From a virus (taxonomy: Duplodnaviria; Heunggongvirae; Uroviricota; Caudoviricetes), in the IMG/VR virus record IMGVR_UViG_3300017650_000009: a stretch of DNA of 64,000 bases; one strand, given 5' to 3'. This document shows positions 1,713 through 53,749 of the stretch, in pieces. The notes beneath the pieces were generated by a model, which searched no databases, was not told the DNA's origin, and saw only the letters and a program-made list of their open reading frames with translations. The stretch's first letter is position 1. Each line of letters begins with the position of its first letter. The position numbers and the translations under genes were made by a program.

Positions 1713-1716
1713 AAAT

Positions 1717-26420: not shown

Positions 26421-26448
26421 AAAACCCGACCTAAGCCGGGTTTAAGGG
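26421..26448 (-). terminator. intrinsic terminator of the tmRNA transcript
   Basis: Minus strand: aaacccggcttaggtcgggttttt. Confidence 0.6.
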
Positions 26449-26850
26449 ACGTTCTGTTTCCAAGTGTATCGCCCAAAACTCATCTGAGATTAAGCAGCGA
26501 GTGCCATCTCAGCAGAAACATTATCGTTTGCTGCATTTATAAAATCGAACATATATTAGTGTTTTGATTTCTAGCCTATCTCACCGAGGTAATCAAGGCG
26601 TCTGATTGGCTTTCCAGTTACCCAGTCCACACTCAAAACATTAATCGGTCGTATCTTACCGGTAACCTACTCGTACCTTTCGCTGCATAGTCGAAGCCTA
26701 TATCGCCCCCATCATAAACACAAAGCACTCTCCAAAAGCCGATCACTCGTCAATCTTCACAGATTGTCACCTTGTGTTTATGGTGGAGGCGCGGGGAACT
26801 GCCCCCCGGTCCTACACAACTATTGAGTTTGTATCAACAGTTACATGGGT
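26421..26850 (-). ncRNA. ssrA: circularly permuted (two-piece) tmRNA gene. In transcript order: acceptor piece (about 26843-26781, ending with T-arm + CGCCUCC-ACCA); intervening segment (26780-26711); coding piece (26710 to about 26449) with 5' GGGGGCG and tag ORF 26534-26490
   Basis: 5' GGGGGCGAUAUAGGCUUCGACUAUGCAGCGAAAGG (compare E. coli GGGGCUGAUUCUGGAUUCGACGGGAUUUGCGAAACC); acceptor stem GGGGGCG/CGCCUCC with G3.U70; T-arm CGGGG-GGCAGUU-CCCCG then ACCA; ...UAUAAAU GCA GCA AAC GAU AAU GUU UCU GCU GAG AUG GCA CUC GCU GCU UAA, peptide AANDNVSAEMALAA. Confidence 0.75.
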
Positions 26851-26880
26851 ATTTAAGCAGGATCGTCTGTTTTTGTCAAC
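26850..26880 (-). promoter_or_regulatory. sigma70-like promoter for tmRNA (TTGACA-17-TTAAAT)
   Basis: Minus strand: gTTGACAaaaacagacgatcctgcTTAAATAcc. Confidence 0.4.
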
Positions 26881-27042
26881 CACTTATCTCGAATATACTG
26901 GACAAATGTGCAGGAGGCTGAACCCCCATATAGGCAAACGATTGCGACTTGTAAATCCCACCAAAGGATCGCAGACATTCCGACGCCGAAACACACATAC
27001 CCGGCTACCTCTAGACAACGGAGAGCTTTTTCAAAAATTACT

Positions 27043-30485: not shown

Positions 30486-31115
30486 GTGTTTGCATTTCTT
30501 ATCGCTGACGAATATCTCGTCTTCAGTTGCGCACTAGCCGTGTCTTTGGCTTTTATCGCGCTCGAGTTAGCTGGAACATTTATCGGCTTCTCATTTTTCT
30601 CAGATACCCATGCGGATCATGATTTCGACCTATCCGGTGATAGCTTCTTCGCCAGCATTAGTGCGGGTATGCGTTGGATGGGATTTGGTAAAGTGCCACT
30701 CCTTGCACATTTAATCTTGCTTGCGGGATTGTTTGGTCTTATAGGGATGGTTCTACTCCATATTATCTATGGAGCAACTGGATTATATTTGAGTAACTGG
30801 GCTGCGGTGCCAATTGCTCTTATTGGAACAGTTTTTCTTTCAAATCGTTTTACCGCACTTGTGGTTAAAATCATCCCCACGGATGAAACCAACGCAATCA
30901 GTGTATCGGAACTAGTTGGTTATGAAGCAACTATTAGTGTGGGTAAGGCAACCCATACGATGCCGGCTCCTGCCAACACCGTTGACAAATACGGTACACA
31001 ACATAATTTCATGGTCTGCGCACTTGATGCAGGCACTGAACTAAACGAACGCACAAAGGTACGCCTTGTCAGTCTTACTGATAATGGTTATTTTTATGCA
31101 ACACCTTTGAATTAA
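30486..31115 (+). CDS. NfeD-like membrane protein (partner of SPFH proteins)
   Basis: N-terminal TM helices + C-terminal OB-like beta domain; immediately upstream of flotillin; GTG start after SD aaggag. Confidence 0.5.
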   Translation: MFAFLIADEYLVFSCALAVSLAFIALELAGTFIGFSFFSDTHADHDFDLSGDSFFASISAGMRWMGFGKVPLLAHLILLAGLFGLIGMVLLHIIYGATGLYLSNWAAVPIALIGTVFLSNRFTALVVKIIPTDETNAISVSELVGYEATISVGKATHTMPAPANTVDKYGTQHNFMVCALDAGTELNERTKVRLVSLTDNGYFYATPLN

Positions 31116-31133
31116 CAGAAGGATCTGCCTTTA

Positions 31134-32888
31134 ATGGAAAATATCATCTTTATGGCAATTGTTGCTCTAGTAGCAATTCTAGTCGTTGGCGTTTTTGGTT
31201 TTATCGTTGCTCGGCTTTATAAGCGCGCTTCGAAGGAAACAGCTTTTGTACGTACTGGTGCTGGTGGTCAGAAAGTCGTCAAGGACGGCGGTGCCCTCAT
31301 TATTCCGGTTCTGCATGATACACTTGATATCAATATGCAGACACTCAAGCTGGAAGTTTCTCGTACTGGCCAAGACGCACTTATTACGCATGATCGTATG
31401 CGTACGGATGTTACCGCAACATTCTTCGTTCGTGTCAAGCCGGATAATGATGCAATTGCACAGGCCGCACAGACCCTTGGTCGCCGGACTCAGAACCCAG
31501 ACCTTCTCAAGGCTGTTATTGAAGATAAGTTCATCGATGCTTTGCGTTCGGTTGCTTCTTCGATGGAACTGAAGGACTTGCATGAAAAGCGTTCGGACTT
31601 CGTGCAGAAGGTTAAGACCACTGTTGAAGAAGATCTGAAGACTAATGGTCTCGAACTTGAATCGGTCTCTTTGACTCGTTTGGATCAGACGGATCAGAAG
31701 TTCTTGAATCCAAACAATGCGTTCGATGCTGAAGGTCTCACCAATCTTGCAAAGATCACGCAGGAAAAGGCTCGCGAACGTAACGAAATCGAGCAGACCG
31801 CTCGCGTTGCTATTGAGAAGCGCAACTTCGAAGCGAACCAGGAATCGCTCGCGATCCGCCAGTCTGATGAGTTCGCCCGTCTTGATCAGGAACGTCAGGT
31901 TGAAACTCGCAAGGCCGAGCAGGAAGCTCAGCTTGCCCAGCAGCGCGCCGATCGCAAGCGTGAAGCCGATGTTGCGGCAATCGAAGCTGAAAAGCAAACT
32001 GAACTTGCTCGTACAACGTCAAACCAGGAAACTGCATTGGCTCGCACCGAAGCAAATAAGCGTCAGAAGGAAGCTGAAATTACCGCAAACCAGCAGCTTC
32101 GTATTGCTGAGCAGAACCAACAGATTGCTTTGAACGCTAAGTCTGAGGAAGAATCCAAGTCTCGTGCTATCGCGGATACTGAACGTGCAAATGCTGTTGC
32201 GGCTGCAGAATCGGTTAAGACTGCAGAAGCTGTCGCAACGGCGGAACGTTTGAAGCGCGTTGCGATCATCGAAGCCGAACAGGAAGCTGGCCGCAAGGCT
32301 ACCGAAATTACGGTTCAGGCAAAGGCTGAATTCGAAGCTTCGGATCTTCGTACAAAGGCACGTCTCAAGGACGCCGAAGCACGTGAGCGTGAGCTTACTG
32401 TTGAAGCTGAAGGTAAGCTCAAGATCAACGAAGCTGAAAACTCCTTGAGCCCTGAACAGATTGCACTTCGTCTTCGTACAACTGTTGTGCAGGCACTTCC
32501 TGGTATTCTCGAGCAGATGGTTGCTCCAATGAAGGCAGTCAAGGACGCACGTATCGTTACGATCAACGGTACGGGTGTTGGTGGTGCGGTCGCAGGTGGC
32601 ACTACTGGTTCGAATACTACTTCGGTTCCAGAGCAGCTTACCAATTCGTTGCTCAACTACCGTTCACAGGCCCCACTTGCTGATGCTCTTGGTAAGCTTG
32701 TTGGTATGAACCTCAATGGTTCGCTCAACGATATCATCCCTGATGATCTTCTAAGCGGTGAAGATGGTTTGCTTGCTCCGGTAGCGGCTGTGGCTCAGGT
32801 TGCTGACACAAAGACCAATACCGTACAGAAGGAAGACCAGGAACTGAAGAATATTCAGCACTTGGCTGGTATCGACACTAAGAAGTAA
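31134..32888 (+). CDS. flotillin-like SPFH/band-7 protein (FloT/YqiK-like)
   Basis: N-terminal TM, SPFH core (YKRASKETAFVRTGAGGQKVV...), long Ala/Glu-rich coiled coil with EA repeats. Confidence 0.75.
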   Translation: MENIIFMAIVALVAILVVGVFGFIVARLYKRASKETAFVRTGAGGQKVVKDGGALIIPVLHDTLDINMQTLKLEVSRTGQDALITHDRMRTDVTATFFVRVKPDNDAIAQAAQTLGRRTQNPDLLKAVIEDKFIDALRSVASSMELKDLHEKRSDFVQKVKTTVEEDLKTNGLELESVSLTRLDQTDQKFLNPNNAFDAEGLTNLAKITQEKARERNEIEQTARVAIEKRNFEANQESLAIRQSDEFARLDQERQVETRKAEQEAQLAQQRADRKREADVAAIEAEKQTELARTTSNQETALARTEANKRQKEAEITANQQLRIAEQNQQIALNAKSEEESKSRAIADTERANAVAAAESVKTAEAVATAERLKRVAIIEAEQEAGRKATEITVQAKAEFEASDLRTKARLKDAEARERELTVEAEGKLKINEAENSLSPEQIALRLRTTVVQALPGILEQMVAPMKAVKDARIVTINGTGVGGAVAGGTTGSNTTSVPEQLTNSLLNYRSQAPLADALGKLVGMNLNGSLNDIIPDDLLSGEDGLLAPVAAVAQVADTKTNTVQKEDQELKNIQHLAGIDTKK

Positions 32889-32903
32889 TTCTTAGTTTTA
32901 CGG

Positions 32904-32930
32904 AAAAGGGGACTTCGGTCCCCTTTTTGT
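32904..32930 (+). terminator. rho-independent terminator
   Basis: aaggggac-ttcg-gtcccctt + tttg. Confidence 0.6.
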
Positions 32931-32961
32931 TTGACTTTTTACCAAAACAAAGCTAAAAGGG

Positions 32962-33690
32962 ATGAAATCGAAGGAGATACCTGTGGGTTATATTAAGCAA
33001 AAAGGATTAAAAATGAACCAAGCCATGAACATCATTTATAGCTTGGTTGCCGGCTTTAGTGTCGGGGTATCAATCTTCTTCGGTGTGTTTCTTACATTCG
33101 GTGTGGGCATTGGCCCCTTTATGATTGCAGCTATGGGCGGTGCAATCGGTATGATTCTCACCACTGCTTATGTTTGTGATAAACTCCATAACTTGCAATG
33201 GAATAAAGAACGTAAAGAAAAAGATCTCGCACTAACGTACCAGGAGTTCAATGGACTCGAAGGTCTTTCGGGTGTGGATGTGGAAGCATTCCGAAACACG
33301 ATTCTAGAAGCTCGCAAAAAGCAATCAAAAATCCAATCCATGTATGTGCATTTGCATTTGCAAAAGGATGCCAAAATCATTCTAGCAGCATCAGCTATTG
33401 CAATTTTCATGGGAGAAATTCTAGCGTATGTGAAGAAAGAACCACAGAACTATCGTGCTGTTCACAAATGGCTTGATGTATATGCGGATCAAACAATTAA
33501 CATTTTGGAACAATATGCGGATATTCACGTAGATGCGCGTGATAAGGTTCGTGACAAATTCACCGATACCATTGTGCTGGTTAAAGATAACTTGCAATCG
33601 ACTATGGAATCGCTTACAGATAACACGATTGACAATTTACAAATTGATCTGGAACTTCTTCAGGATCAAATGAAACAGTACACGCGATAA
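32962..33690 (+). CDS. membrane protein (2 TM) with cytoplasmic helical domain
   Basis: Hydrophobic segments near residues 20-70. Confidence 0.4.
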   Translation: MKSKEIPVGYIKQKGLKMNQAMNIIYSLVAGFSVGVSIFFGVFLTFGVGIGPFMIAAMGGAIGMILTTAYVCDKLHNLQWNKERKEKDLALTYQEFNGLEGLSGVDVEAFRNTILEARKKQSKIQSMYVHLHLQKDAKIILAASAIAIFMGEILAYVKKEPQNYRAVHKWLDVYADQTINILEQYADIHVDARDKVRDKFTDTIVLVKDNLQSTMESLTDNTIDNLQIDLELLQDQMKQYTR

Positions 33691-33700
33691 GGAGCACGAA

Positions 33701-34789
33701 ATGAAAGTAACCAAAATCAAAGACACTGAGCTGGATTTGCTACCGATCACAAGTGATCCCAATGGTATCGATTTATCGAAGGTTCCAGCAATCCGTGATG
33801 GTCTTGATATTACGAAAACCAACGATATTATTGGTTTTGGTTCCGGTGCTCAGAAGAAGGTTACCGACATCAGCCGCAAAATGCTTGAAGGCGTGAAGTC
33901 CAAGGATACTGGCGTTGTCGGTGGGCTGCTCGTCGATATGGTTACATCTATGCGTGGCCTTGATTTCGACAAAGTCAAGCCTGGATCAAAGGTTGGATTC
34001 CTCGGCAAGCTTTTGGGTCGTTTGACTCCAGTGGCCAAGTTTATTCAGCAGTACGAGGGTATCTCTTCACACATTTCAGTTGTGGTTGCTGATCTTGAAA
34101 CCAACAAAGTCGCCCTTATGCGCGACGTGAAGGTTCTTGATCGTCTTTATGCGACGACACTTACGTATTTCCATGAACTTGCCGCCTACATTGAAGCGGG
34201 GACACAAAAGCTTGAACAGCTTGATAAAACGGAAATCCCAGCCCTGAAAGCTATAGCTGAAAAGTCCGGGGATATGCTGGATGCACAGAAAGTTCAGGAC
34301 CTTGTTCATGCACGTGATATGCTTGACCGAAAGGTGCACGACCTAAAGCTAACACGCCAAGTCGTCATGCAAAGCCTACCAAGTATTCGCATGGTTCAGC
34401 AGAACGATACTGATTTGATTGAAAAGATCAATTCACAAATCACCAACACCATTCCGGCATGGGAACAGCAATTGGCCCTTGCTGTTGCTATGTGGCGTTC
34501 AGCTGATGCGACAAAAACAACTCGTGCGGTTTCGGATTATTCCAATGAATTGATCAAGCAAAATGCAAAAATGCTGCGCCAGTCAAATGCGGAAGCACGT
34601 ACGGAAATCGAACGTGGCATCTATGATGTTGAAGCAATCAAGGCAGCAAATGAAGAATTGATTGCAGCCATTGGTGAATCCATTGCTATCGCTAATGCAG
34701 GCAAAGAAAAGCGCTTGCAAGCATCAGCAGAACTCATCGAGTGTGAGAATAAGCTTCGTGATGTCTTAGCGAGCGCTTCTACTAATTAA
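33701..34789 (+). CDS. TelA/KlaB-like toxic-anion-resistance family protein (tentative)
   Basis: 362 aa, helical; conserved-looking N-terminal region GFGSGAQKKV...; size and context (with SPFH/NfeD) like Bacillus YceH. Confidence 0.45.
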   Translation: MKVTKIKDTELDLLPITSDPNGIDLSKVPAIRDGLDITKTNDIIGFGSGAQKKVTDISRKMLEGVKSKDTGVVGGLLVDMVTSMRGLDFDKVKPGSKVGFLGKLLGRLTPVAKFIQQYEGISSHISVVVADLETNKVALMRDVKVLDRLYATTLTYFHELAAYIEAGTQKLEQLDKTEIPALKAIAEKSGDMLDAQKVQDLVHARDMLDRKVHDLKLTRQVVMQSLPSIRMVQQNDTDLIEKINSQITNTIPAWEQQLALAVAMWRSADATKTTRAVSDYSNELIKQNAKMLRQSNAEARTEIERGIYDVEAIKAANEELIAAIGESIAIANAGKEKRLQASAELIECENKLRDVLASASTN

Positions 34790-34796
34790 GTTAGTT

Positions 34797-34826
34797 CCTA
34801 AGCCGTGGGATTACCACGGCTTAGGA
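34797..34826. terminator. bidirectional hairpin between convergent genes
   Basis: cctaagccgtgg-gatta-ccacggcttagg. Confidence 0.5.
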
Positions 34827-37800
34827 GTTTTAGGTGGTTCATTCGGATCCGGTGTTGATGGAGGAAGAATAGTACATTCACCAATCGTACGAGCATCCTT
34901 ATATACACAAATCATTGTACCACCACGAGGAGGCAAGAAGCTCTTTCCAACACTAGATAGTGCATCAGTAGTTTTACTTTTAGCTCCCTCAGGCGATTTT
35001 CCAGTTTCAGTATAATGAATCTTAAACGTGCGGATTTTTTCCTCACCCGTATAGATATCGTATGCTCGAGCCTGGAACGTAATAGTTGTTGGGCCCTCAG
35101 GTGGAGTTGTATTGATAGTTCCACCATTACGTTTTTCACGAGCATTGTTAACCATGTCCGGAGACAAGAACGTCAACTCACCCTGGAACCAAGCGTCCGC
35201 AGCTTTTGATATTGGTTGCATATTTTCGTCTTTCTCTCCAGTTTGGAAGAAGAATTTCCATTCATCCATATGCTTGCGAATATCTAGCACACCATATTGT
35301 GCACCCGCCATTGGAACCACCGTGCTATCACGCAGTGGGTTTCTCACTCGACGATCCACATTACCCGATACATATCCAACTGAATCATATTCATCCCAAA
35401 TTTTGGTACTTTTTGGTTTACGAATTTTATCGTTATTGAATAGTTCCCAATTCATATATTCCGGTGTTAGCTTTGGTCTCGAAGCCGCAGCAAATGCACC
35501 ATAATAATCTGTTCCCGGGAATTGAACAATATAATTTCCTAATTGATATGGATCAGTTGATGTTGGTTTAAAATATTGATTTGTAAACATTGCATCTTCA
35601 ACGTTATCCATAGGAGATGTTAGGAACAAATTACCACGCCCACAATTGGCATCTGCATTCATTGCTTTTAGAATACTTGTAGTATAGGTTGTTCCATTCG
35701 GATCACGCTGAGAAATCAAACATTTCGGAGCCGTTAATAGCCAACTAGTACGCTCCTTGCCGGGGGAAACAAATGGATCAAATCTACTATACACTTTTGT
35801 ACCAATGGTATTCATAATGTCAATACGAACATAAAGACGATTGGTATAAAATTTGATAGTGAATTTTTGTTTGAATGGCATCCAAAATTCATTTGGCCCA
35901 ATCCAAGTGAAAGGATCGACATTATAAGCTTCTGTATGTGGGTTTGGTTGTGGAATATATGTTTCGTCAGGCTGTTTAACCCAAACATTATTGGATTCCT
36001 TATCAAAAACCACACGCGGTGGCGGCCAAGGCCATTCCTCTCTTGTATTTTCGATAGCAGGAAGGAAATCATATTCCTTGATAATTGGATCCAATTTACC
36101 ATCCCATGTGCCCTTTTCAGGTGCGAGTTGACCTGCGGCATCACTAATGAAAGTTCCATTAGGTGTTCGATAACAAGTACGTGGATCTCCAGTTGGAGGA
36201 GGAGCATCCCAACCCACAGTTGGCTTACCAACACGAACGCTATAATTATTTGCTACAATCTCACCATAGCTTGCTGGTTGATTAATCTTTGTGTTCTTAT
36301 CATTGTAATAGATGAAATCTTTAAGTTGAGATCCGTTGACTTCAATCGAATCAACACGGATGAAACGACGACTTGCACCCTTCACTTTATAGTTTGTCTG
36401 GACAATACCAATTGTAGTATTTGGACCCAAAGTACCCTCATATGTGAAGATGAATTGCTTTGAACCAACTTGATCAGCTTTAAGTCCATCGAACGATTTC
36501 TTTTCCAATCGTTTATTATCAACAATAAGGGCAAACTCAGGAACTCCGTCATATTCCCAACCAGTAATTTTTGCATAGATTACATTTACATTGGTTTTGA
36601 TATTCGGGACACTAGTTACCACTTGACATGTACCCTCAGGTGGCATGTCGATAATGAATGGAAGGATTTCCCATGTCAACACACCGTCACGCTTTACTGC
36701 CACTACAGTTACTGGTTGCTCAGCATTCGGGACGTGTATGATTTCGCCTTCTTCTTCAGGTTCAGGCAAAGTACGACCTTCAATTTCAGCGAATAGCCCG
36801 CACTTGCCCTTGAGCTGCCATTGACCATCAAACCCCATGACATACGAACATCCAGTAAGCGGGATAACATTATAATTATCATCAACTGGTGGGTGTTCAA
36901 TTGGCTTCAAGTGAACACGAACAATAAGATCACCCAACACACATTTGTTCTTTTGCGTACATACGTCGAACATAACGTGTTCCCAAATCGGAGTCTTATC
37001 TTCCTCACAATGATGAACTAACTTTACACGGCCTGCATTGACATCGGCTTGCGTAAACTGTGGCGGGACAACTTCAATGTGAGGATTGCCGTTTGTAAAC
37101 TCGAGTGTTTTTTCTATATTCCAAGTATATGTAATTTGATCCGGATTTGAACCAAACTCAACGGTATGTTTGAGGTTATCCTCAGTAAGAGTTATCTCCT
37201 CACATTCATTCATCGACGCTGTATTATTAACGACTTCGGGATAAGGCCATTCACGAACCTTAACATCGAAACGACCCCAAGTACATTTGTTGACATTTGC
37301 ACATGCATTGAAGAAAAAGCTAACTAGCTCATCAGGACCTATAAATTGCCCTTCAATGCAAACTTTTCCCTCATCAAGATCTGAATGCGTAAATGTATCT
37401 CCTTCTTTCATTGGTGCGCCATTTAGCTTATAAATGGCTCTGGCTGGAAATTTCTCTGAACCTTTATCAACATGTTCAATAGTGTATGTAATTGGAAAAC
37501 GTTCAAACAATGGATCGGCACGGGGATCAGTAGGTTCTTCACCCTCTGGTGGCAATACCTTAAAATTCAAATTTGTTAAACGAGCATTATTCTGAGATAG
37601 TGCACCAAAACCATATTGAGATTGACCTGCGAACGGTCCACTCAAAGTATAAGTTAGAAGGGTTGAATCATCAAGCTCTGTGCTTCCAAATTGACTACAA
37701 CGCGCTGTAAGGGTATTTCCCTTACGTATGATTTCAACAGCCGTTTCTCCTAAAGATGGCCAAGATTCATTCTTTGTATTGTTATGGTGATTTGGCGCAC

Positions 37801-38689
37801 GGGACGAACCATCAACGACTGTAGACCAAGTTGAACCATTATAGTTGAAAATAAACCAACTTGGATTTCCTAGGTTACCACCATTTGAATTCAAACCACC
37901 AGAACGACCAACACCAATAAAATTTGGTTTTCCGTCGATTTCCACATAAGCGGCGATCATGAAAATCATGTCATCGTCTTTGGCTGTGGAACTCATTACG
38001 CTAGAGAAGCTAAAACGATCCGCGGTAAGCCAACCAACCGCACCAGTCATTTCCTCACTATTGCGAGTCAACAACATTCCTCTGTTGCCCAATTCGGGAT
38101 CATGCATCCAGTAATATGCGGGATCACTTTGTGGTATAGTCTGTCCTAGATCATAAACACGATCACCAGCAAAACGTTTCCAATAAGCAAAATTTTGATT
38201 CTCTGGTGATGGAGCATAGATCGCAGGATCCTGATCAAATCGTTTGATTTCTTCGGAGTCCGAGCTATAAAACAGGTGAGCACGGGAGAAACAAAGTGTT
38301 TCATCTTCCATGATCGTTATTTTTTTGTTGATAATTTCCTTCGGGAAAGGAATACAAAGGATCGTAATACCAAATGTGAAGACACCGTCCTCTGGAATGT
38401 TTGCGGGTGGCAAACAGGTCGAACGAGGGGTTTCAGCAGTTAGGATTTCTGTTTCAGAAATAGGCACAACATACTTGAAACTATCCGACATAATCTCGGC
38501 TTTCAAGTCAACTTTTGTATTTTGGTATTGAAAACGTCCAGCGCCCACATCTTCATGTGTGAAACGTTGGCCTACTTTCATGATTTCGCCATTTAGAAGC
38601 AAATTACCTTTTGTGGGCAATGTTCGCAACTGATATAAACCACGTTCTGCGTAAGCTTCGACGATAATATGTTCGTTCAACAAACTCAT
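34811..38689 (-). CDS. giant structural protein (1292 aa) with CSPG/cadherin-like repeats; probable fiber/baseplate/adhesin
   Basis: Repeats FTHEDVGAGRFQYQN, FTHSDLDEGKVCIEG, FTQADVNAGRVKLVHH. Confidence 0.55.
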   Translation of the reverse strand: MSLLNEHIIVEAYAERGLYQLRTLPTKGNLLLNGEIMKVGQRFTHEDVGAGRFQYQNTKVDLKAEIMSDSFKYVVPISETEILTAETPRSTCLPPANIPEDGVFTFGITILCIPFPKEIINKKITIMEDETLCFSRAHLFYSSDSEEIKRFDQDPAIYAPSPENQNFAYWKRFAGDRVYDLGQTIPQSDPAYYWMHDPELGNRGMLLTRNSEEMTGAVGWLTADRFSFSSVMSSTAKDDDMIFMIAAYVEIDGKPNFIGVGRSGGLNSNGGNLGNPSWFIFNYNGSTWSTVVDGSSRAPNHHNNTKNESWPSLGETAVEIIRKGNTLTARCSQFGSTELDDSTLLTYTLSGPFAGQSQYGFGALSQNNARLTNLNFKVLPPEGEEPTDPRADPLFERFPITYTIEHVDKGSEKFPARAIYKLNGAPMKEGDTFTHSDLDEGKVCIEGQFIGPDELVSFFFNACANVNKCTWGRFDVKVREWPYPEVVNNTASMNECEEITLTEDNLKHTVEFGSNPDQITYTWNIEKTLEFTNGNPHIEVVPPQFTQADVNAGRVKLVHHCEEDKTPIWEHVMFDVCTQKNKCVLGDLIVRVHLKPIEHPPVDDNYNVIPLTGCSYVMGFDGQWQLKGKCGLFAEIEGRTLPEPEEEGEIIHVPNAEQPVTVVAVKRDGVLTWEILPFIIDMPPEGTCQVVTSVPNIKTNVNVIYAKITGWEYDGVPEFALIVDNKRLEKKSFDGLKADQVGSKQFIFTYEGTLGPNTTIGIVQTNYKVKGASRRFIRVDSIEVNGSQLKDFIYYNDKNTKINQPASYGEIVANNYSVRVGKPTVGWDAPPPTGDPRTCYRTPNGTFISDAAGQLAPEKGTWDGKLDPIIKEYDFLPAIENTREEWPWPPPRVVFDKESNNVWVKQPDETYIPQPNPHTEAYNVDPFTWIGPNEFWMPFKQKFTIKFYTNRLYVRIDIMNTIGTKVYSRFDPFVSPGKERTSWLLTAPKCLISQRDPNGTTYTTSILKAMNADANCGRGNLFLTSPMDNVEDAMFTNQYFKPTSTDPYQLGNYIVQFPGTDYYGAFAAASRPKLTPEYMNWELFNNDKIRKPKSTKIWDEYDSVGYVSGNVDRRVRNPLRDSTVVPMAGAQYGVLDIRKHMDEWKFFFQTGEKDENMQPISKAADAWFQGELTFLSPDMVNNAREKRNGGTINTTPPEGPTTITFQARAYDIYTGEEKIRTFKIHYTETGKSPEGAKSKTTDALSSVGKSFLPPRGGTMICVYKDARTIGECTILPPSTPDPNEPPKTPKPW

Positions 38690-39852
38690 AGGATTTGAGT
38701 CTCCGATTGTAAGCCAGCACTATTGGTCCCCGTTTGTGTTGTAATCAAAGCGTATCTACGTGTAGCGCTAAGACCGGTTACCGGATCAATGGCTGTGACC
38801 GTGAACAAATAGCGTCCCGGCTCTATTGGAAGCTTCCATGGTTGTGTACCAGCTTGTGATAACGGAATACGATATTGCGTACCCACATATCCTATGCTAG
38901 AAACAGCAACACCAGTAGGCAACCCGCCATCCCAATAAAACTGCTCGTGCAAATTCTTATACTGTATTAATTTATCAAATCCCAAACCACGTTCCGGATC
39001 ATCCAGCGGCGCACCATCAGCAATCGCATAGTTGGACCAATCAATAATGCCAGTACTCGGCGTGCTTGCGTTTCGTGGTGATATATCGGATCCACCTCTA
39101 AGAGACCACAATGCATTTGGTTTGTTTGTTTGGAATGTCCAAGTGAATACTGAATCGATGCGTGCATAGATTACGTTATCACCAATTTGTTTGAAATCCG
39201 CATGAATCTCAACATCAATAACTGTAGGTCCAACACATTGATTTGTTTTTGTGCAAACCATCAAACTAATTGTATCCCATGCAGGGGCCATTCCAGTAGC
39301 AACATAACGAATTGAGTTAGAGTTTACATCTGCTTGGGTGAACATAGTAGTCTTCTTACCACGTAGGCTCAAATAACCATTCGTGAGTGGGGTATTCAAT
39401 TTATAGATAAGATCGTTTGGACTAACACCATCTAGTTCCGCATGTATTACAGTATTATCCAAAACCGTAGACTTCTCCTCAACCACATTGATTTTGTTCT
39501 CAATTAGTGTGATCGTAGGAGGTGTCATTTTATTAATGCGGATCGAAAACTCAAATATTCCATCCTCAGGAACTTCAATATCACGATCAGGCAAGCATGT
39601 ATTATAGGAATCAGCCGTTATATTTCCAAGTCCATACTTGTATAGGTTATATTTGAAGGAATCCTCTAGAAACTCAACATTGTCGGGTACTTTGGTCGTA
39701 CTTACGAATTTGATTTGCTCATCGAAAATATCCTGTTGTGAAAATTTAGATCCCACTTGTAGTCGGGTTTTACCCTTAACAAGATAACCATATTGGGGCA
39801 ACGTGAGGAGCTTAAAAAGCCCCTCCGTCGGAATCATAGGATTAACAACCAT
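38686..39852 (-). CDS. structural protein (388 aa) with CSPG/cadherin-like repeats
   Basis: FSQQDIFDEQIKFVST, FTQADVNSNSIRYVATG; ATGA overlap with neighbours. Confidence 0.5.
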   Translation of the reverse strand: MVVNPMIPTEGLFKLLTLPQYGYLVKGKTRLQVGSKFSQQDIFDEQIKFVSTTKVPDNVEFLEDSFKYNLYKYGLGNITADSYNTCLPDRDIEVPEDGIFEFSIRINKMTPPTITLIENKINVVEEKSTVLDNTVIHAELDGVSPNDLIYKLNTPLTNGYLSLRGKKTTMFTQADVNSNSIRYVATGMAPAWDTISLMVCTKTNQCVGPTVIDVEIHADFKQIGDNVIYARIDSVFTWTFQTNKPNALWSLRGGSDISPRNASTPSTGIIDWSNYAIADGAPLDDPERGLGFDKLIQYKNLHEQFYWDGGLPTGVAVSSIGYVGTQYRIPLSQAGTQPWKLPIEPGRYLFTVTAIDPVTGLSATRRYALITTQTGTNSAGLQSETQIL

Positions 39853-39853
39853 A

Positions 39854-42800
39854 TTAACCCTCCTTTGTGCGGAAGTCTACGTTCCATACAGCCGGAGTAG
39901 GACCTACAGCACAATTCTCAGTTACTAGGATGTTAACGTATTGGCTTGTTAGTCCAGTATTGAATGTATATTCTAGTTCACCCGCAGTATTTGAACGGCA
40001 ACCCGAATTTACATGCACTGTACGATTTTGATCCTGAACAAAGATACTAGCATAACCAATATCAACTTTGAACTTGAGAACCATAGTCGAACCTGGCTTC
40101 TTCAAGAAAATAGTCTTCGATGCTTTGTTTGTAACTGGATCAGTATCACTTGGGCTGATAACTTCGCCTTCTTCCCAGTTGTCTGTTTCACCTGGAGTTT
40201 CGGCATCGTCTGGGTTAGGATCATCGACGTTTGCGTAATCCATATCAACATCACACATCTGCAAGTAATCATATGTAATTGCACGAGTTTCTAGCTCAAA
40301 TAGTACAAGCTGAGTCTGGAAACAAATCCAAGGTGGGTTGTTCACTTGTGTGAATTTAATATCGAATGTGCCTGAACCTGAGAAAGGTATTGAGTTAACC
40401 TCAAAATCAAAAGAATCAGGATCCGTACGATACGTGATACTAGTGTATGTGATTACGTTCGCATAGATGTCAGCAAGGGTAAATGTATCACCTTCATTGA
40501 GCACTACGCCGTTACGCTCGAGTACACCACGAGAAACACCACGAGTAATTGTGAAAATCATATCTTCACGATTAAAACTCGTACGCAAGTTCAACACGTT
40601 GAGTGACACACCTGTGATTGCTCGTTTGGTACAAGGCGGAACAACTAGACCCTTGTTGACCAACTCTGGCGGTGGTGGTGGAATAATACGAATTGGGAAT
40701 GTTTCCAAAGGCAACACATTTCCACCTGCATCTGTGAGCGAGAAGTCAAAGGAGTCCAAAAGTGCTCCTTCTTCTGTTTCACAATACGATAGGAAACCAA
40801 ATCTAATATCCTGATACGTGAATACATCGCCTTCCTTCAGTGGCACATCCTTTAGAGAAAGTGTACCATAAAGAGGAAGTTTGAGTATCTGTAACTTCAA
40901 TTGATCATCTGTGGATTCACGATCATTGATATAGATATTTGAGCCAGTAATTTGCTTACAAGTTAGCTCGCCTAGCACCAATTCGTTCATTACCAATTCA
41001 GGCGGACGATCCGTCATGATAAGTTCAATAAGGAAGTTATCCGTAATCTTTTCAATTCCATCAGTAACTTCAAAAGTAAAGAAATCAGTGCTCTGAACCA
41101 TTTGGTCCGGATCAGGAACATATGTTAGGCGTCCACTATTGATATCTTCTTGTGTTAGCTTTGTGCCAATTTCAATCTCAACAGTTCCCAACATAAGCTT
41201 ACCAACTTTTGGTAAAGAACGGATTGTATAAACCAGTTCAGCGTCGGTAGTAACGGAACCACTTGTAGCCAACAACAATGAGTTATCGATGGTTCCAGTT
41301 TCAGATTGCTCAACGACTAGTTTTTCGTTTTTCAATTCGAGTCCAGGAAGGAAAAACACATGGAATTCAATTTCTCTAGCACAGAATCCATTTGTCACCG
41401 ATAGCTCAAATACATCCTCTTCTGGAGTGTCACGTTCGTGTTGGTATGAGAGTAACATCAACAGGATATCATTACTTGTGAATGTTTCATCACGGCCAAT
41501 ACGTTTGCCATCGACTTTGAGATATCCAAAATTAGGAGTTTTGGTTACCGTAAACACGAACTCACTAGGATCAACACCTTCATTGTATGCGAGCAAATTA
41601 AGCTCAGTGATAGCCTTTTCCTTGGTGAAACTCATTGTGATTGGATTATAAATGATTTCAGGGCAAAGCAATGGTGGTGGTGGAAAAATAAACAACATCG
41701 CACCAGCAATACGGGACGAAAATTCATCATACATTACAAAGTGGACATAATCATTTACTACGTTTCGGTCGGTGACTTCGGCCACATAACGGAACGTATT
41801 GAGCTGCCAATCAGGTTGGTTGAATTTCTGCCCAACAAACGCCGGCTCACCATTGATATAGAATGTACCATATAGTGGTAGCTCGGTAATTTCCAACCAT
41901 GCATCCTCAAGTGGACCATCATCATCTGTAAAATTTACGTCTTCGACATCGAAGTTTACTTCACCATTTCGTGGTGGAGAATGTGGTTTATTAACTGTCA
42001 AATACGGAGGTTTATTATTCTCGTTCGTAATAACAATACCAGCGCCTTTACGTACTTCATTCATTTCGTCTCGAACAATGAATTCAAAACCATCAGTCCA
42101 AGGTGTGTGAACAGTACAATCATGTGTATATGTGAGTTTTGAGTCCAATACATCCTGATATGTAAACTTGTCACCGATTTTAACCGGTTTGCCATCCAAT
42201 AATAGTTCACCATGTGTGGGCAATACTGTAACTTCAATTTCGAGTTTATCTGGCTTCAAACCCTCTGGGTCACGAATGTAAATGTTTTCTTCAGTGAACA
42301 CACCGGATTCGCAACGTTCAACTTCCAAAATAACAGTATCAACAATTGGAGGTTCATTTGGAACTAGTTCCAATATGTATTTGAAGTCAGTTACGGTAGA
42401 AGTTTCACGAGTGTGATACGCATCCATAATAATTTCATCGAATGGTGTCTTTGAGCAATCATGTGTGAAACTTAGGCGACCAGCAGTAATATCAGCTAGA
42501 ACCCATGTATCTCCGACTTTCATTGGAGAATTATTCTTCTTTAAGATACCATGCAATGGAAGTTTCTTCAGAACAAAAGTAATTGGTTCATCTGGATCAT
42601 CTTCATCAACGGCCCATAGCGAATCCTGAGAGAATATTAATTCCTCACACTGCTTGATTTTACGTGGAGAGCCCTGGATCTGAATCAGTTTATCAACAAG
42701 ACGAATACGAATTTCAAGTGTATAAACGGGTGCCTTATCCTCCGGTTCACCAACTACAACACCAGACCAGTTATTCTTCGCATCACGTACTTTGAATACC

Positions 42801-43432
42801 AAATAGTCGAGTTCTTCCTCACGACTACCATTATGTCGGTATTCTAATCGACCTTTATCAATATCATCTTGTGTGAATTCGGTGCCAGGACCAATGCGCT
42901 TGCCCTTCAAGTAGATATCACCGAATTGTGGCCATGCTTGCACTCGCATAAAGATCGCACTTGGAGGGTCCTTAATATCGGTGAAGTGGATATTAACGTT
43001 TCCAATAACTTTATTTTCACTAATACCAACGTAAAGCGGAAGTGTACCACCTTCTGGTGCTCGATCGGGAAAGTTATATCGAATAGTGAGAGTAACGTTT
43101 ACTGGGCGGCTACTCGGATCATTTAGATCCTGAATTACTAGGTTTACCTTAATATACTCTTTAGTGACGTTAGACGGATCAGCAACGTAACGAATAACAC
43201 CGGAATTGATTTCAGCTTGTGTGAAAACAACTGGCTGTAATGTCGTAGTATTTCGTACAAAATGTCCAATGTCTGGATCCAAACTTCTCATCGTATATTG
43301 GATTTTATTGGGTGCACCATTACCACCAGTCGGCAACGTAGATACCGCATTCAAGTTTATTTGTGTTATAGGAGTGTTTGTTGCGGGGTTAATACCCAGC
43401 TCTTTAACCGTCACATTTGAGTTAATTGCCAT
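39854..43432 (-). CDS. giant structural protein (1192 aa) with about 9 CSPG/cadherin-like repeats
   Basis: Periodic x-GD-x-F-T-x-x-D-[IL]-x-x-G-x-[LI]-x-Y-x-H motifs about 100 aa apart. Confidence 0.55.
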   Translation of the reverse strand: MAINSNVTVKELGINPATNTPITQINLNAVSTLPTGGNGAPNKIQYTMRSLDPDIGHFVRNTTTLQPVVFTQAEINSGVIRYVADPSNVTKEYIKVNLVIQDLNDPSSRPVNVTLTIRYNFPDRAPEGGTLPLYVGISENKVIGNVNIHFTDIKDPPSAIFMRVQAWPQFGDIYLKGKRIGPGTEFTQDDIDKGRLEYRHNGSREEELDYLVFKVRDAKNNWSGVVVGEPEDKAPVYTLEIRIRLVDKLIQIQGSPRKIKQCEELIFSQDSLWAVDEDDPDEPITFVLKKLPLHGILKKNNSPMKVGDTWVLADITAGRLSFTHDCSKTPFDEIIMDAYHTRETSTVTDFKYILELVPNEPPIVDTVILEVERCESGVFTEENIYIRDPEGLKPDKLEIEVTVLPTHGELLLDGKPVKIGDKFTYQDVLDSKLTYTHDCTVHTPWTDGFEFIVRDEMNEVRKGAGIVITNENNKPPYLTVNKPHSPPRNGEVNFDVEDVNFTDDDGPLEDAWLEITELPLYGTFYINGEPAFVGQKFNQPDWQLNTFRYVAEVTDRNVVNDYVHFVMYDEFSSRIAGAMLFIFPPPPLLCPEIIYNPITMSFTKEKAITELNLLAYNEGVDPSEFVFTVTKTPNFGYLKVDGKRIGRDETFTSNDILLMLLSYQHERDTPEEDVFELSVTNGFCAREIEFHVFFLPGLELKNEKLVVEQSETGTIDNSLLLATSGSVTTDAELVYTIRSLPKVGKLMLGTVEIEIGTKLTQEDINSGRLTYVPDPDQMVQSTDFFTFEVTDGIEKITDNFLIELIMTDRPPELVMNELVLGELTCKQITGSNIYINDRESTDDQLKLQILKLPLYGTLSLKDVPLKEGDVFTYQDIRFGFLSYCETEEGALLDSFDFSLTDAGGNVLPLETFPIRIIPPPPPELVNKGLVVPPCTKRAITGVSLNVLNLRTSFNREDMIFTITRGVSRGVLERNGVVLNEGDTFTLADIYANVITYTSITYRTDPDSFDFEVNSIPFSGSGTFDIKFTQVNNPPWICFQTQLVLFELETRAITYDYLQMCDVDMDYANVDDPNPDDAETPGETDNWEEGEVISPSDTDPVTNKASKTIFLKKPGSTMVLKFKVDIGYASIFVQDQNRTVHVNSGCRSNTAGELEYTFNTGLTSQYVNILVTENCAVGPTPAVWNVDFRTKEG

Positions 43433-43539
43433 GTTTTTTGATTACTCCAAGGAAGCGCTTTTTCTTCCTATTTATGTTGTTTTGGACTTGACATTTTTTG
43501 CTTTCCTGTTACGTTTGTAGAAACAATGGAGAAGATCGT

Positions 43540-45132
43540 ATGTGGACAACAGACCTTAAACAGATTCACAAATTGTTCGACGATGCAGGATTTGAGATCC
43601 GGATCGTTGGTGGTGCTGTCCGCGATCATCTTTTGGGTCTTGAGCCCAACGACATCGATCTTTGCACTGATGCAACTCCAGATGAAATGATTACACTGGC
43701 CGAAACAAACAGTATCAAAGTTATCCCAACTGGTCTACAGCATGGTACGGTTACATTTGTAATCAATGGCGAACCCTATGAGATCACAACTTTGCGAATC
43801 GACGTTGAAACAGATGGTCGTCACGCAGAAGTTGCGTTCACTCGTAGCTTTGAAGAAGATGCTTTGCGCCGGGATTTCACGTTCAACGCTATGAGTTATG
43901 ATATTCATGGTGTTGTGCATGATTACTTCGATGGTCAAGTCGATCTGAAACGCAATGTTGTTCGATTCGTCGGAGATGCCGAAGCACGTATCCGTGAGGA
44001 TTACCTACGTGTATTGAGGTGGTTCCGGTTTTACTCGCGTATGGGTTCGAGTGAACGAACTATGGAAGACGTTGATCTTCTTCGTTTGTTTGGTGAAGAT
44101 TGGATTCAATCGGGTATGGATAAACTCAGTGGTGAGCGCATATGGTCCGAACTGAAAAAGATTTTATCAACCACAAACATGCGACAGGCCGCAATCGATT
44201 TGATTCAAACAGGAATGCTCGAAACAGTCCTGGGTCTTAGTATGACTCAATCCGAACGTGATATGTTCGTTACGCCGTCTTACGAATCATACTCGGTGAT
44301 TTGGAGTATAGAGGAGATTCTGAAATCCGATTTTGGTCATTTCCCACAATTTGTGGAACTTGCTCCAATTACAGTCATTGCACGATTTCTTGCTTCGTTC
44401 ACACCCGAAGAAGCAAACGCGGTAATTGATCGTTTGCGTATGTCTGCATCGGAAGCCAAAGCAATGCGCGAAATGCGCGATTACATGTTGATTGAACTTA
44501 CCGCGGGAAGTGAAACTGCTCGTCTCGATCTCATTTCCGGATTGACACGTACTTCACTTACATATTGGGTTCACTACGCGAGCTCCAAAGGCGTTGATAT
44601 GCATTTGGCTTTGTTTGCTGCGCTAACTTCACCAAATATGTTTCAGCCACGCGATGTTAGTGAAATGATCCGCTCAGTGTTTAAGCCAAACGGCGAAGTC
44701 GAGATGTCGGAAATTGAACCATTTACAATAACGGGCAAGGATCTGATTGAGCTCGGTTTGAAACCTGGTCCAATGTTCTCCAAGATCATTGAGATGGCAC
44801 GATGGAAATGGTACTCAAGCTCATGTAGTATGGACCGTGGACGGCAGCGTACTTGGGTTTCCAAACTGATCGCGGATGCACCCGAGCCGCATGTGTTGGT
44901 CAAACACCTCTATAGTTGTTTCCAAAGTGAACTCGATTTCAATAAGGGAATGGATCATTATGATATCCAACTTCATACCATCGAATGGGCAACTAAGCTA
45001 CCAAAGGGGTTTCATGCAGTTATCGAGGATCGCAAATCCCGTGATGATTGTCGCATGTTTGTATTGTGTCCGACTAAAGCTGCGGCGGTTACGCTCAAAC
45101 TAGAGGACGAATATATGCATGACGCAAAGTAA
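43540..45132 (+). CDS. cca: CCA-adding tRNA nucleotidyltransferase (class II Pol-beta NTase) with C-terminal extension
   Basis: RIVGGAVRDHLLGLEPNDIDLCTDATP head motif; SD ggagaag + ATG 43540 (track ORF starts earlier at 43498). Confidence 0.75.
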   Translation: MWTTDLKQIHKLFDDAGFEIRIVGGAVRDHLLGLEPNDIDLCTDATPDEMITLAETNSIKVIPTGLQHGTVTFVINGEPYEITTLRIDVETDGRHAEVAFTRSFEEDALRRDFTFNAMSYDIHGVVHDYFDGQVDLKRNVVRFVGDAEARIREDYLRVLRWFRFYSRMGSSERTMEDVDLLRLFGEDWIQSGMDKLSGERIWSELKKILSTTNMRQAAIDLIQTGMLETVLGLSMTQSERDMFVTPSYESYSVIWSIEEILKSDFGHFPQFVELAPITVIARFLASFTPEEANAVIDRLRMSASEAKAMREMRDYMLIELTAGSETARLDLISGLTRTSLTYWVHYASSKGVDMHLALFAALTSPNMFQPRDVSEMIRSVFKPNGEVEMSEIEPFTITGKDLIELGLKPGPMFSKIIEMARWKWYSSSCSMDRGRQRTWVSKLIADAPEPHVLVKHLYSCFQSELDFNKGMDHYDIQLHTIEWATKLPKGFHAVIEDRKSRDDCRMFVLCPTKAAAVTLKLEDEYMHDAK

Positions 45133-51431: not shown

Positions 51432-52784
51432 TTAATCGAACTTTAGTTTCCCAAGCTCCACAACTTCTTTCCTGTATATGGATTTTAGCTTCTTAGGATC
51501 AGCCAACGTACTGGTGTATTCGGCAATATTATCCTCAAGACGCTTGATATTCTCCAACACACTAGCATAAGCATCCTGCGCCCAACGATACGAAGGCAAG
51601 CTTACAATGCGATCTAGCTGAGAAGCATCCAATAGAATACCACTAGTAATTGCCTTGACTGCATCAGTTATCTCAGCCTTGTTCGCCATAGTACTGAGTT
51701 TGCTTGGAAGCTTTTTATCGAAACAAATCTTAACAGCGCGCCAATAGTTGAGTGCGTATTCGTCCTCTGCTTTCATATATTCGTATCGTGTGGTGTACCA
51801 CTTAAGGCGCCAATCAACAAATGACTTTACAACATCCTCTGCGCAATCATATTGCTTGATCGTACTGTTATTCCAATCCACTACAACGATACGTTCTGAC
51901 TTCTTCTGACGTAACTTGAGGAAATCAATAGCCTTTGTTTCGTCCCATTTTGCAACAGAACCTCGCGCCATTTTAATCTTAATATCGATGGTCTTAGTCG
52001 AACTATCTGTGTAAGAGTTGATCTTTCCATCGTCCTCAAGTGAGTTTAGGCGTTCTTTAAACTTAGCTAGACTCAGATCAACAGGCAATTCAGTAACATG
52101 CAAGGTAGAGGAATCAATAACCGCAACACGTCCAGTAAACTCCCAGGAATTTTCCTCCAAATGCTTAACTTGCACTTGATAACGCGCATAATCGGGAACC
52201 AAACGCTTGATTTCTTTTCCATCAATTGCTGCGAGTGTTGCTTCAACTAGGCTATTGAAGTTACGACGTAGAATCTCCGTAGACCAACCAACCGCAATAC
52301 CCGATACACCATTGAGCAAAACAGTCGGAATCAATGGAAGGAAATGTACGGGTTCCTTTACCGAACCATCATAGTTGTCCTTTAGCGGGACAATATCAAG
52401 ATCAGTGAGCATGAGATTCTGCAGGACTGAGCCTCTACGAACATACGTATAACGAGGAGCACCAATACCCTCCACTGGGGCAGTTCGTGTACCAAAAGCA
52501 CCAATGCCATTGAGCAGCGGGATATTATTAACGAACGGAGCCGCAAGCATACTGACAGCGCCGGCCGCGCTTGCATCACCATGCAGGTACAAACCAGACT
52601 GAATCATTTCACCAGCAAGTGAAACGGTTTTAACCTTTTCTGATTTATTACGGATTAGCCAAAGAGCTTTACGTTGTGCGTCCTTGAGACCGTCATGAAC
52701 CTTTGGGATTGCTCGGTTCTCACAAACGTAAATGGAATATTCGCGTGAAGTATCTAGGATATAATCTGAACTATTTTGAGCCAT
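51432..52784 (-). CDS. type II DNA topoisomerase, GyrA-like cleavage subunit (T4 gp52-like)
   Basis: HDGLKDAQRKALWLI (GyrA DGLKPVHRR motif); RYTYV active-site Tyr region. Confidence 0.75.
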   Translation of the reverse strand: MAQNSSDYILDTSREYSIYVCENRAIPKVHDGLKDAQRKALWLIRNKSEKVKTVSLAGEMIQSGLYLHGDASAAGAVSMLAAPFVNNIPLLNGIGAFGTRTAPVEGIGAPRYTYVRRGSVLQNLMLTDLDIVPLKDNYDGSVKEPVHFLPLIPTVLLNGVSGIAVGWSTEILRRNFNSLVEATLAAIDGKEIKRLVPDYARYQVQVKHLEENSWEFTGRVAVIDSSTLHVTELPVDLSLAKFKERLNSLEDDGKINSYTDSSTKTIDIKIKMARGSVAKWDETKAIDFLKLRQKKSERIVVVDWNNSTIKQYDCAEDVVKSFVDWRLKWYTTRYEYMKAEDEYALNYWRAVKICFDKKLPSKLSTMANKAEITDAVKAITSGILLDASQLDRIVSLPSYRWAQDAYASVLENIKRLEDNIAEYTSTLADPKKLKSIYRKEVVELGKLKFD

Positions 52785-53011
52785 TATTGAGCCTTATTAT
52801 TTTTTATTTTTTAATTATGGGTTTTAACACCGAAACTATTTACAACATGAGCTTAAATCGGATAGCTTCTTGTTTTGTCTCAAATAACAAATAGAATCCA
52901 CCATCATCTATATACCAAGTAATTATTTTGGGCTCGATATTCAATTCAACACAAACTTCAAAAACTCTAGCTTCGTCATATTTGGTCAAATCCAAATAAA
53001 GCTTGTATCCT

Positions 53012-53263
53012 TTAGCCATTGAAGTTCAATCGGAACATCATTGCGTCTTGCTTCTTACTGAACCAACACTTGACCTCGTAATGCTTGAATGCACCGTATG
53101 AGTCTTCGAATTTGATAATCTCGTACCATACTGTACCGACGCAATACTGCTTGACCCAATCAACTAGTTCTTGTTCATCCCATGTTGAGTAATTCACACG
53201 ATTCACAAACTTGAATTTGGATTCCTTAGGAACTGATCCGCTAATACGAACTGCTTTACTCAT
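53012..53263 (-). CDS. FKLxFG-family small protein
   Basis: C-terminus AMMFRLNFNG. Confidence 0.45.
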   Translation of the reverse strand: MSKAVRISGSVPKESKFKFVNRVNYSTWDEQELVDWVKQYCVGTVWYEIIKFEDSYGAFKHYEVKCWFSKKQDAMMFRLNFNG

Positions 53264-53264
53264 G

Positions 53265-53738: not shown

Positions 53739-53749
53739 TTTGTCTCCTT

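Follow-up and report, generated by a model that had tools for sequence, protein, structure and literature searches.

What family do three long, repetitive proteins of a tailed phage belong to, and what might they do for it? The question is raised by three adjacent minus-strand genes, here called A, B and C, in a 64,000-nucleotide stretch of viral DNA (the window; IMG/VR record IMGVR_UViG_3300017650_000009, Caudoviricetes). An earlier note on this DNA had described them as giant proteins with about 14 CSPG/cadherin-like repeats that may form host-recognition fibres or whiskers binding polysaccharide. Our analysis recovered the same three open reading frames (ORFs), with identical limits and lengths (Table 1), and establishes that their products are genuine members of the CSPG/Cadherin_3 family. 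"Giant" is a generous label: two of the proteins have about 1200-1300 aa, the third only 388 aa. On balance, we hold it somewhat probable that the three genes encode low-copy, virion-associated accessory adhesion fibres of a jumbo phage resembling Agrobacterium phage Atu_ph07, with polysaccharide bound via C.

Three phage proteins built from CSPG repeats

The Pfam model PF16184 (Cadherin_3, CSPG repeat; gathering threshold 25.5 bits) matches all three proteins: A with E=6.9e-90 and 296.5 bits over nine stretches, B with E=8.4e-17 and 61.5 bits over two, and C with E=1.4e-7 and 31.9 bits over two, which gives 13 Pfam-supported repeats. The same model matches 10 of 10 orthologues of A and 13 of 13 orthologues of B. 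An iterated hidden Markov model (HMM) made from A, B, C and their orthologues in Sinorhizobium phage Phosso delimits 14 repeats (nine in A, two in B and three in C), the number arrived at in the earlier note. The tandem unit of about 100 aa described there was likewise found, the repeats of A following one another without gaps at a period of ~111 aa (unit length ~100-115 aa). Of all sequences in the PDB, human CSPG4 is the sole significant match of the 14-repeat profile (7ml7_B, E=1.7e-6); when A, B and C were each searched singly against the PDB there was no match, and neither was there one in an NCBIfam scan of the proteins. Among 5.8 billion proteins, the best non-phage matches of A are fish FREM1 proteins (E=1e-38 to 1e-27, 22% identity, 83% of A). 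The proposed family is thus the right one, and CSPG4/NG2 and FREM1 carry homologous repeats. The suspicion that they might belong to another beta-sandwich family can be set aside, since the next such family in Pfam, Big_9, reaches merely E=0.87.

The hallmark motif put forward for the repeats did not survive as a literal pattern, which has no match in A, B or C. Its relaxed core, G..[FLW][TSN]..[DE][ILV], occurs five times in A, once in B and twice in C, against fewer than 0.1 matches expected per protein, and the three example strings quoted for the motif are found in the proteins. The classical cadherin HMM (PF00028) matched none of A, B and C at E<=1. The cadherin Ca2+ motifs DxND[NDE] and [LIV]D[RFY]E are absent from the three proteins, in which D-x-D strings are isolated and lie away from the repeat boundaries. 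Judged by these signatures, the repeats are not classical cadherins.

The repeats are predicted to adopt a cadherin-like beta-sandwich fold. The AlphaFold2 (AF2) model of B, obtained from 13 sequences with a mean predicted local distance difference test score (pLDDT) of 70.8, renders both of its repeats as beta-sandwiches (pLDDT ~80-95), and Foldseek relates it to protocadherins, to RET cadherin-like domains and to a CSPG4 fragment (7n8x_B; template modelling (TM) score 0.55, root-mean-square deviation (rmsd) 5.3 Å). On the phage side, PHROG 22884 ("virion structural protein") matches one repeat of A (E=5e-16), and a weak match to the structural protein g080 of Cellulophaga phage phi14:2 is the only other phage hint of CSPG repeats.

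A fixed repeat number in a clade of jumbo phages

At the DNA level, the 8.6-kb region has no match among 50,697 phage records. At the protein level, only Phosso (469 kb) and Atu_ph07 (490 kb) match, with identities of 47% (A) and 37% (C) to Phosso and of 35% (A), 33% (B) and 27-32% (C) to Atu_ph07. The orthologues of A, B and C are gp20, gp21 and gp22 in Atu_ph07 and XYS97654, XYS97653 and XYS97652 in Phosso, respectively. A pattern search based on an alignment of A orthologues found one contig in IMG/VR; in 185,579 genomes of bacteria and archaea (GTDB), no site fitting the pattern encodes a relative. The earlier remark that such repeats are unusual in phages is borne out by these searches. 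The exact proteins of the window lie on a 434,884-bp contig, and the families comprise about 10 (A), 13 (B) and 7 (C) members. The clade carrying the three-gene module consists of phages of ~340-490 kb, and the contigs of its metagenomic relatives reach 340-480 kb.

The number of repeats is constant in this clade. The 9/2/3 distribution is invariant in all close orthologues, down to ~32% identity, and 10 of 10 A orthologues have nine repeats. Such constancy suggests a structure whose length is defined, unlike that of an expanding and contracting adhesin array. The order A-B-C and the overlap of B with C are also kept in Phosso, Atu_ph07 and the metagenomic contigs. Translational coupling by ATGA overlaps had been claimed for all three genes; such a 4-nt overlap is present at the B/C junction but not at the A/B junction, where stop and start codons are separated by a 1-nt spacer (TAA-t-ATG). 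Phosso and the metagenomic contigs L005 and L006 have a 4-nt B/C overlap as well; that of Atu_ph07 measures 1 nt. A programmed frameshift fusing B to C or A to B was considered and rejected, as inspection revealed no slippery heptamer at either junction and termination-reinitiation coupling is simpler. The other ORFs of the window include no further CSPG-repeat ORF and no paralogue of the non-repeat domains of A, B or C.

Domain architecture of A, B and C

Table 1. Coordinates of the CSPG-repeat genes, of the parts of their products and of neighbouring features in the window
Feature	Position	Strand	Remarks
Gene A	39854-43432	minus	1192 aa; long stalk protein (putative): nine tandem CSPG repeats, then C-terminal region; ORF, Pfam
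A residues 1-1031	40340-43432	minus	nine contiguous CSPG/Cadherin_3 repeats, period ~111 aa; own HMM, alignment, CSPG4 match
A residues 1031-1063	40244-40342	minus	truncated start of a tenth repeat (NNPPWICFQTQLVLFELETRAITYDYLQMCDVD), ~33 residues; highly conserved in orthologues
A residues 1064-1192	39857-40243	minus	acidic linker, then C-terminal domain of ~90 aa; C1145, C1174 and W1183 conserved
Gene B	38686-39852	minus	388 aa; short paralogue of C: variant N-terminal repeat, full repeat, C-terminal domain with conserved tail; ORF, Pfam
B residues 1-112	39517-39852	minus	variant CSPG repeat; HMM positions 33-91
B residues 113-220	39193-39516	minus	full CSPG repeat with CxxxxxC hairpin (C200/C206); Pfam, HMM; pLDDT ~82-95
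B residues 221-388	38689-39192	minus	C-terminal domain, partly modelled; residues 253-339 pLDDT <50
B residues 375-388	38689-38730	minus	conserved tail G.S..GL.SES..L
Gene C	34811-38689	minus	1292 aa; multi-module protein; ORF, Pfam
C residues 1-130	38300-38689	minus	variant N-terminal CSPG repeat, paralogous to the B N-terminus; HMM
C residues 131-406	37472-38299	minus	predicted ConA-like/L-type-lectin jelly roll; PHROG, AF2, Foldseek
C residues 407-600	36890-37471	minus	one partial and one full CSPG repeat; Pfam, HMM; AF2 pLDDT ~62-85
C residues 601-800	36290-36889	minus	Cys-containing linker domain, then hypervariable CBM60-like module (~700-800); AF2 pLDDT ~50-68
C residues 801-1292	34814-36289	minus	orphan C-terminal region; AF2 pLDDT <50, residues 913-1292 left unmodelled
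Gene A 5' leader	43445-43469	minus	hairpin AGGAAG-n8-CTTCCT (43450-43469), then GGAG ribosome-binding site (43445-43448)
CATAAATA	43469-43476	minus	T4-late-promoter-like box, 36 nt upstream of the A ATG
NATAAATA boxes before ORFs	3209, 8824, 11321, 13770, 22212, 56600	plus
NATAAATA box before A	43476-43469	minus
CCA-adding enzyme/poly(A) polymerase family protein	43498-45132	plus	544 aa; divergent from A; position kept in all relatives
YqiJ-like protein	30486-31115	plus	membrane-associated cluster
SPFH/flotillin-like protein	31134-32888	plus	membrane-associated cluster
Halogen_Hydrol-family protein	32962-33690	plus	membrane-associated cluster
TelA	33701-34789	plus	E=1e-101; membrane-associated cluster (30486-34789), convergent with gene C

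The nine repeats of A comprise approximately residues 1-120, 121-246, 247-358, 359-476, 477-588, 589-696, 697-808, 809-919 and 920-1031, and the apparent linkers between them are the last strand of each repeat. In the fragment of a tenth repeat that follows, P1033, P1034, W1035, C1037, C1060 and D1061-D1063 are invariant columns. The C-terminal ~130 residues have no Pfam, NCBIfam or PDB sequence match.

The N-terminal repeats of B and C both lack about the first 30 positions of the model, and that of B carries a Cys-containing insertion (TCLP..PEDGIFxF). Residues 1-112 of B are 37% identical to residues 1-130 of C (E=1.6e-15), and the Pfam Cadherin_3 match of every C orthologue lies in this N-terminal repeat. 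At the other end, residues 342-385 of B resemble residues 1197-1240 of C (E=0.003), where a conserved Ig-like segment (~1197-1280) is common to the C-terminus of B. By these comparisons, the two ends of B are paralogous to those of C. Neither Pfam nor NCBIfam gives a family match for the last ~170 residues of B; few stretches of the protein family are as conserved as their terminal tail, which could serve as a docking peptide. Strand donation from the tenth-repeat fragment of A to the truncated repeats of B and C was also considered; for B it appears not to be needed, because the N-terminal module of B folds alone in the AF2 model (pLDDT ~80-91).

Cysteine pairs occur at equivalent repeat positions in repeats 3, 4 and 8 of A (262/326, 374/439 and 825/884) and in repeat 3 of C (496/561), and CxxxxxC hairpins in B (200/206) and C (463/469 and 577/583). 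All are invariant or nearly so across the orthologues. These pairs are probably disulfides and would fit disulfide-stabilised extracellular proteins. By inspection, no signal peptide is recognisable in the N-termini of A, B and C.

C is a multi-module protein. Its residues 131-406 match PHROG 21285 ("virion structural", E=1.5e-9) and PHROG 33406 ("tail fiber", E=1.1e-7), the jelly-roll region matches a "putative tail fiber protein" of phage PaBG (tblastn, E=6e-5), and a DDD motif at residues 238-240 is invariant in the family. The AF2 model of residues 94-1292, obtained from seven sequences only, has a mean pLDDT of 50; over residues 193-383 the values are mostly 64-88 (mean ~78). Among the PDB entries found by Foldseek for this model, SraP (4m00) ranks first, followed by VIP36 and ERGIC-53, thrombospondin/COMP C-terminal domains, cadherin ectodomains and PL7 lyases; the matches to SraP, VIP36, ERGIC-53, thrombospondin and the PL7 lyases have a probability of 1.0 yet a TM score of ~0.45 and an rmsd of 8-10 Å. 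Compared with BFVD, the model retrieves Atu_ph07 gp22 and then proteins of PaBG, PBS1 and CP21 annotated as structural or collagen-like.

A second candidate sugar-binding module of C is suggested by its orthologues. For Pfam CBM60 (PF16841; gathering threshold 28.2 bits), the orthologue P0002 scores above the threshold (33.5 bits) and P0004 and P0005 score below it (26.8 and 22.9 bits). The corresponding segment of the window's C aligns with these orthologues by position, with SRRF where they have DRNL. Residues 681-840 show pairwise identities of 0.18-0.28 and are the least conserved region of C apart from part of its C-terminal half. Atu_ph07 gp22 (888 aa, two detected repeats) lacks both the jelly roll and the CBM60-like module. 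Modules of sugar-binding type have thus been gained or lost within the family, and these two behave as swappable accessories. A phmmer search with residues 588-1292 against 1.84 billion representatives returned 13 proteins only, namely the orthologous family and a few partial or weak matches.

The links of C to tail-fibre proteins raise the alternative that A, B and C are the primary, essential receptor-binding tail fibres on the baseplate, which set the host range. The PHROG 33406 and PaBG matches of the jelly roll favour it, and hypervariable, swappable modules such as those of C are typical of receptor-binding proteins. However, Pfam detected none of the trimerisation or fibre modules looked for in A, B, C or their orthologues (collagen, coiled coil, beta-helix, Collar or intramolecular-chaperone domain). 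The AF2 models of B and C are strings of all-beta sandwiches, seemingly monomeric, in which only the jelly roll is common to annotated tail-fibre proteins. Moreover, the window already has conventional fibre proteins (Mtd_N, Collar-domain and collagen-repeat), and the abundance of the orthologues in Atu_ph07 virions is low or nil. A role as primary tail fibres is therefore quite improbable in our judgement, and accessory adhesion fibres remain the reading that we pursue below.

A late-promoter-like box upstream of the module

Gene A is preceded by a box resembling T4 late promoters. The window has nine NATAAATA sites, of which seven are followed by an ORF start at a distance of 21-41 nt (background 9.6%, P ~2e-6). 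Downstream of these boxes lie the Mtd_N/Collar tail-fibre gene pair, a ClpX-like gene, the CSPG module and several ORFs of unknown function. The A orthologues of Phosso, Atu_ph07, L005 and L006 are preceded by an ATAAATA box at -36 to -40, with diverged flanking sequence, and Atu_ph07 encodes a gp55-like sigma factor. The analogy with T4 late promoters, together with this sigma factor, suggests that the module may be transcribed late. On the plus strand, the hairpin in the leader of A was also flagged as a terminator-like element. Scans of the module's surroundings for sigma-70 promoters and for terminators gave counts at or below the shuffled expectation.

Proposed accessory virion fibres, or proteins released at lysis

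We propose the following hypothetical scenario for the three proteins, in which (i) A, B and C would be made in the cytoplasm, without signal peptides, as non-enzymatic, adhesin-like proteins of bead-on-a-string design; (ii) they would be incorporated into the virion in low copy number as thin accessory fibres ("hairs" or whiskers); (iii) A would provide a stalk of fixed length, its nine repeats spanning ~40 nm if extended, while B and C, with their common N- and C-terminal modules, would act as translationally coupled partners; (iv) the jelly roll and the hypervariable CBM60-like module of C would bind surface or matrix polysaccharide reversibly; (v) this reversible binding would keep the particle, which is large and diffuses slowly, close to host cells until the true tail fibres engage.

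Proteomic and microscopic data on Atu_ph07 bear on this scenario. Electrospray ionisation tandem mass spectrometry of Atu_ph07 virions detected gp21 with three peptides and 10.5% coverage and gp20 with one unique peptide and 1.11% coverage (PMC6102473, Table S5), and electron microscopy showed "hairy" whiskers that are mainly capsid-associated (PMC6102473). The polysaccharide-binding virion fibre or whisker of the earlier note is thus plausible: the lectin-type and CBM60-like modules, the conserved box and the weak detection of gp20 and gp21 speak for it, whereas the single peptide of gp20 and the missing gp22 do not.

Several further observations weigh against a virion location or against carbohydrate binding. 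The C orthologue gp22 is not listed in Table S5 of that study, gp20 falls short of the study's own inclusion criterion (>5% coverage or >1 peptide), and the particles used for mass spectrometry were purified with polyethylene glycol (PEG) only (PMC6102473). None of the three main structural gene clusters of Atu_ph07 includes the module, which in the window sits between the CCA-adding enzyme gene and the TelA/SPFH membrane-protein cluster. Scans with Pfam, PHROG and NCBIfam identified no virion-anchoring domain in A, B or C. The NATAAATA box also stands before the ClpX-like gene and hence does not single out structural genes. Finally, the lectin assignment depends on the model of C with a mean pLDDT of 50 and on the loosely superposed matches described above, and the window's C itself has no CBM60 match at E<=1.

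Part of this evidence suits a different explanation, according to which A, B and C are non-virion proteins that accumulate in the cell, are freed at lysis and bind exopolysaccharide or cell-surface glycans. They might, for example, mask receptors on the debris of lysed cells, remodel the matrix or act as decoys, and their detection in the proteome would be carry-over. The very low mass-spectrometric support for a 127-kDa protein, the absence of gp22 and the PEG-only purification favour this explanation, as do the position of the genes outside the structural clusters and the lack of a recognisable virion-attachment domain in the scans; the missing signal peptides are compatible with release by lysis only. 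On the other hand, the strictly fixed repeat number in the clade is more in keeping with a structural component than with a soluble binder, and PHROG and BFVD link the proteins to annotated virion and tail-fibre proteins. In addition, gp21 with its three peptides passes the inclusion criterion, and a late-type promoter box is conserved upstream of A. We consider release at lysis unlikely and prefer accessory fibres carried by the virion. A more specific version of the latter is that A, B and C co-assemble via their common terminal modules into "hairy whiskers" of the Atu_ph07 type, which would be monomeric or heteromeric, disulfide-stapled, of fixed length and fitted with swappable lectin and carbohydrate-binding heads. 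This version is tentative; we regard it as possible but rather doubtful.

Genomic neighbourhood

The TelA/SPFH/YqiJ cluster stands beside the module in Phosso and in the metagenomic contigs L003-L006, but not in Atu_ph07. Its conservation in the window phage and these relatives might point to an intracellular role of A, B and C, for instance in a scaffold or envelope-associated structure formed with the adjacent membrane proteins. However, the cluster is transcribed convergently with the module and is therefore not part of the same operon, and Atu_ph07 keeps the module without the cluster beside it. The CSPG/cadherin-like repeats, the lectin- and CBM-type modules and the conserved cysteine pairs also point to the outside of the cell. 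An intracellular role thus appears highly improbable compared with that of accessory virion fibres.

Conventional fibre-type genes of the window encode an Mtd_N protein (22241-23146, plus), a tail Collar-domain protein (23150-24424, plus) and a 612-aa protein with collagen triple-helix repeats (61384-63222, minus); these proteins have no domain in common with A, B or C. The window further contains a ClpX-like AAA+ ATPase gene with a zinc finger (56638-57882, plus), topoisomerase II subunit genes (GyrB-like and ParC/GyrA-like; 51432-55652, minus), genes of a Toprim primase-like protein and a DnaB-like helicase (672-3195, plus) and the gene of a protein with an inorganic pyrophosphatase domain (16349-17728, plus), which are cargo typical of this jumbo-phage clade. 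A 549-aa protein with multiple PAS domains (PAS_9, E=5.8e-23) is encoded at 9368-11017 (minus).

A permuted, two-piece transfer-messenger RNA (tmRNA) of alphaproteobacterial type is located at 26443-26917 (minus), with the tag peptide AANDNVSAEMALAA according to ARAGORN and Rfam scores of 73.2 bits for alpha_tmRNA (cut-off 50) and 90.4 bits for tmRNA_permuted (cut-off 47). This type of tmRNA suggests an alphaproteobacterial host, in agreement with the Agrobacterium and Sinorhizobium phages among the relatives.

Significance and comparison with known systems

Orthologues of the three proteins were already present in GenBank as hypothetical proteins or "internalin", and beta-sandwich repeats combined with carbohydrate-binding modules are a familiar phage design. 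What is new is the CSPG-repeat identity of three phage proteins, a repeat type that is rare in phages; a literature search yielded no paper describing CSPG repeats in phages and nothing relevant on Polybotosvirus. The label "putative internalin" of Atu_ph07 gp20 is corrected, as it is unsupported: no leucine-rich repeat family is among the Pfam matches of A or its 9 metagenomic orthologues. If the proteins do form the hairs, they would constitute the first virion appendage made of CSPG repeats, which are otherwise typical of CSPG4, FRAS1 and FREM in the animal extracellular matrix, and the first gene assignment for jumbo-phage hairs. They would also give genetic access to the way in which virions that are very large and diffuse slowly find their hosts in soil and rhizosphere, and the adsorption of biocontrol phages against Agrobacterium and its relatives might be engineered with the swappable lectin and CBM modules of C. 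If the proteins are not virion-associated, the finding is the correct domain annotation of three hypothetical proteins.

The repeats of A, B and C belong to the same family as those of CSPG4/NG2, FRAS1, FREM1 and bacterial giant adhesins, and share with them the tandem arrangement of ~100-115-aa units. The hallmark G-x-x-F-T-Q-x-D-I-x-x-G-x-[LIV]-x-Y is common to the phage repeats and those of this family. In contrast to the metazoan proteins, A, B and C are encoded by a phage and lack a signal peptide, a transmembrane segment, LamG, Calx-beta and other metazoan partner domains. The phage array is moreover divided over three polypeptides with a fixed 9/2/3 distribution, and several of its repeats have conserved cysteine pairs. 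The orthologues in Atu_ph07 and Phosso show the same gene order beside the CCA-adding enzyme gene and an identical repeat layout of A and B.

At the level of design, C resembles SraP of Staphylococcus aureus (PDB 4M00), in which a lectin-type jelly roll, as predicted for C, is combined with a cadherin-like stalk. The ligand-binding region of this surface adhesin carries an L-lectin module on cadherin-like modules. With ~9% sequence identity between SraP and C, the resemblance is one of fold only, and SraP differs from C in being a sortase-anchored, serine-rich bacterial protein. T4 Hoc and other phage decorations of Ig-like, FN3 or Big_2 type are non-essential, virion-exposed strings of beta-sandwiches that adhere weakly to glycans. 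The logic proposed for A, B and C is the same, and Atu_ph07 has capsid-associated hairs. In contrast to Hoc, A, B and C consist of a different repeat family, resemble neither Hoc nor its capsid-binding domain, are far longer, and are divided into three gene products whose virion location is putative. If A, B and C are accessory adhesion fibres, SraP-like adhesins and Hoc-like Ig decorations of phages would be their closest functional analogues.

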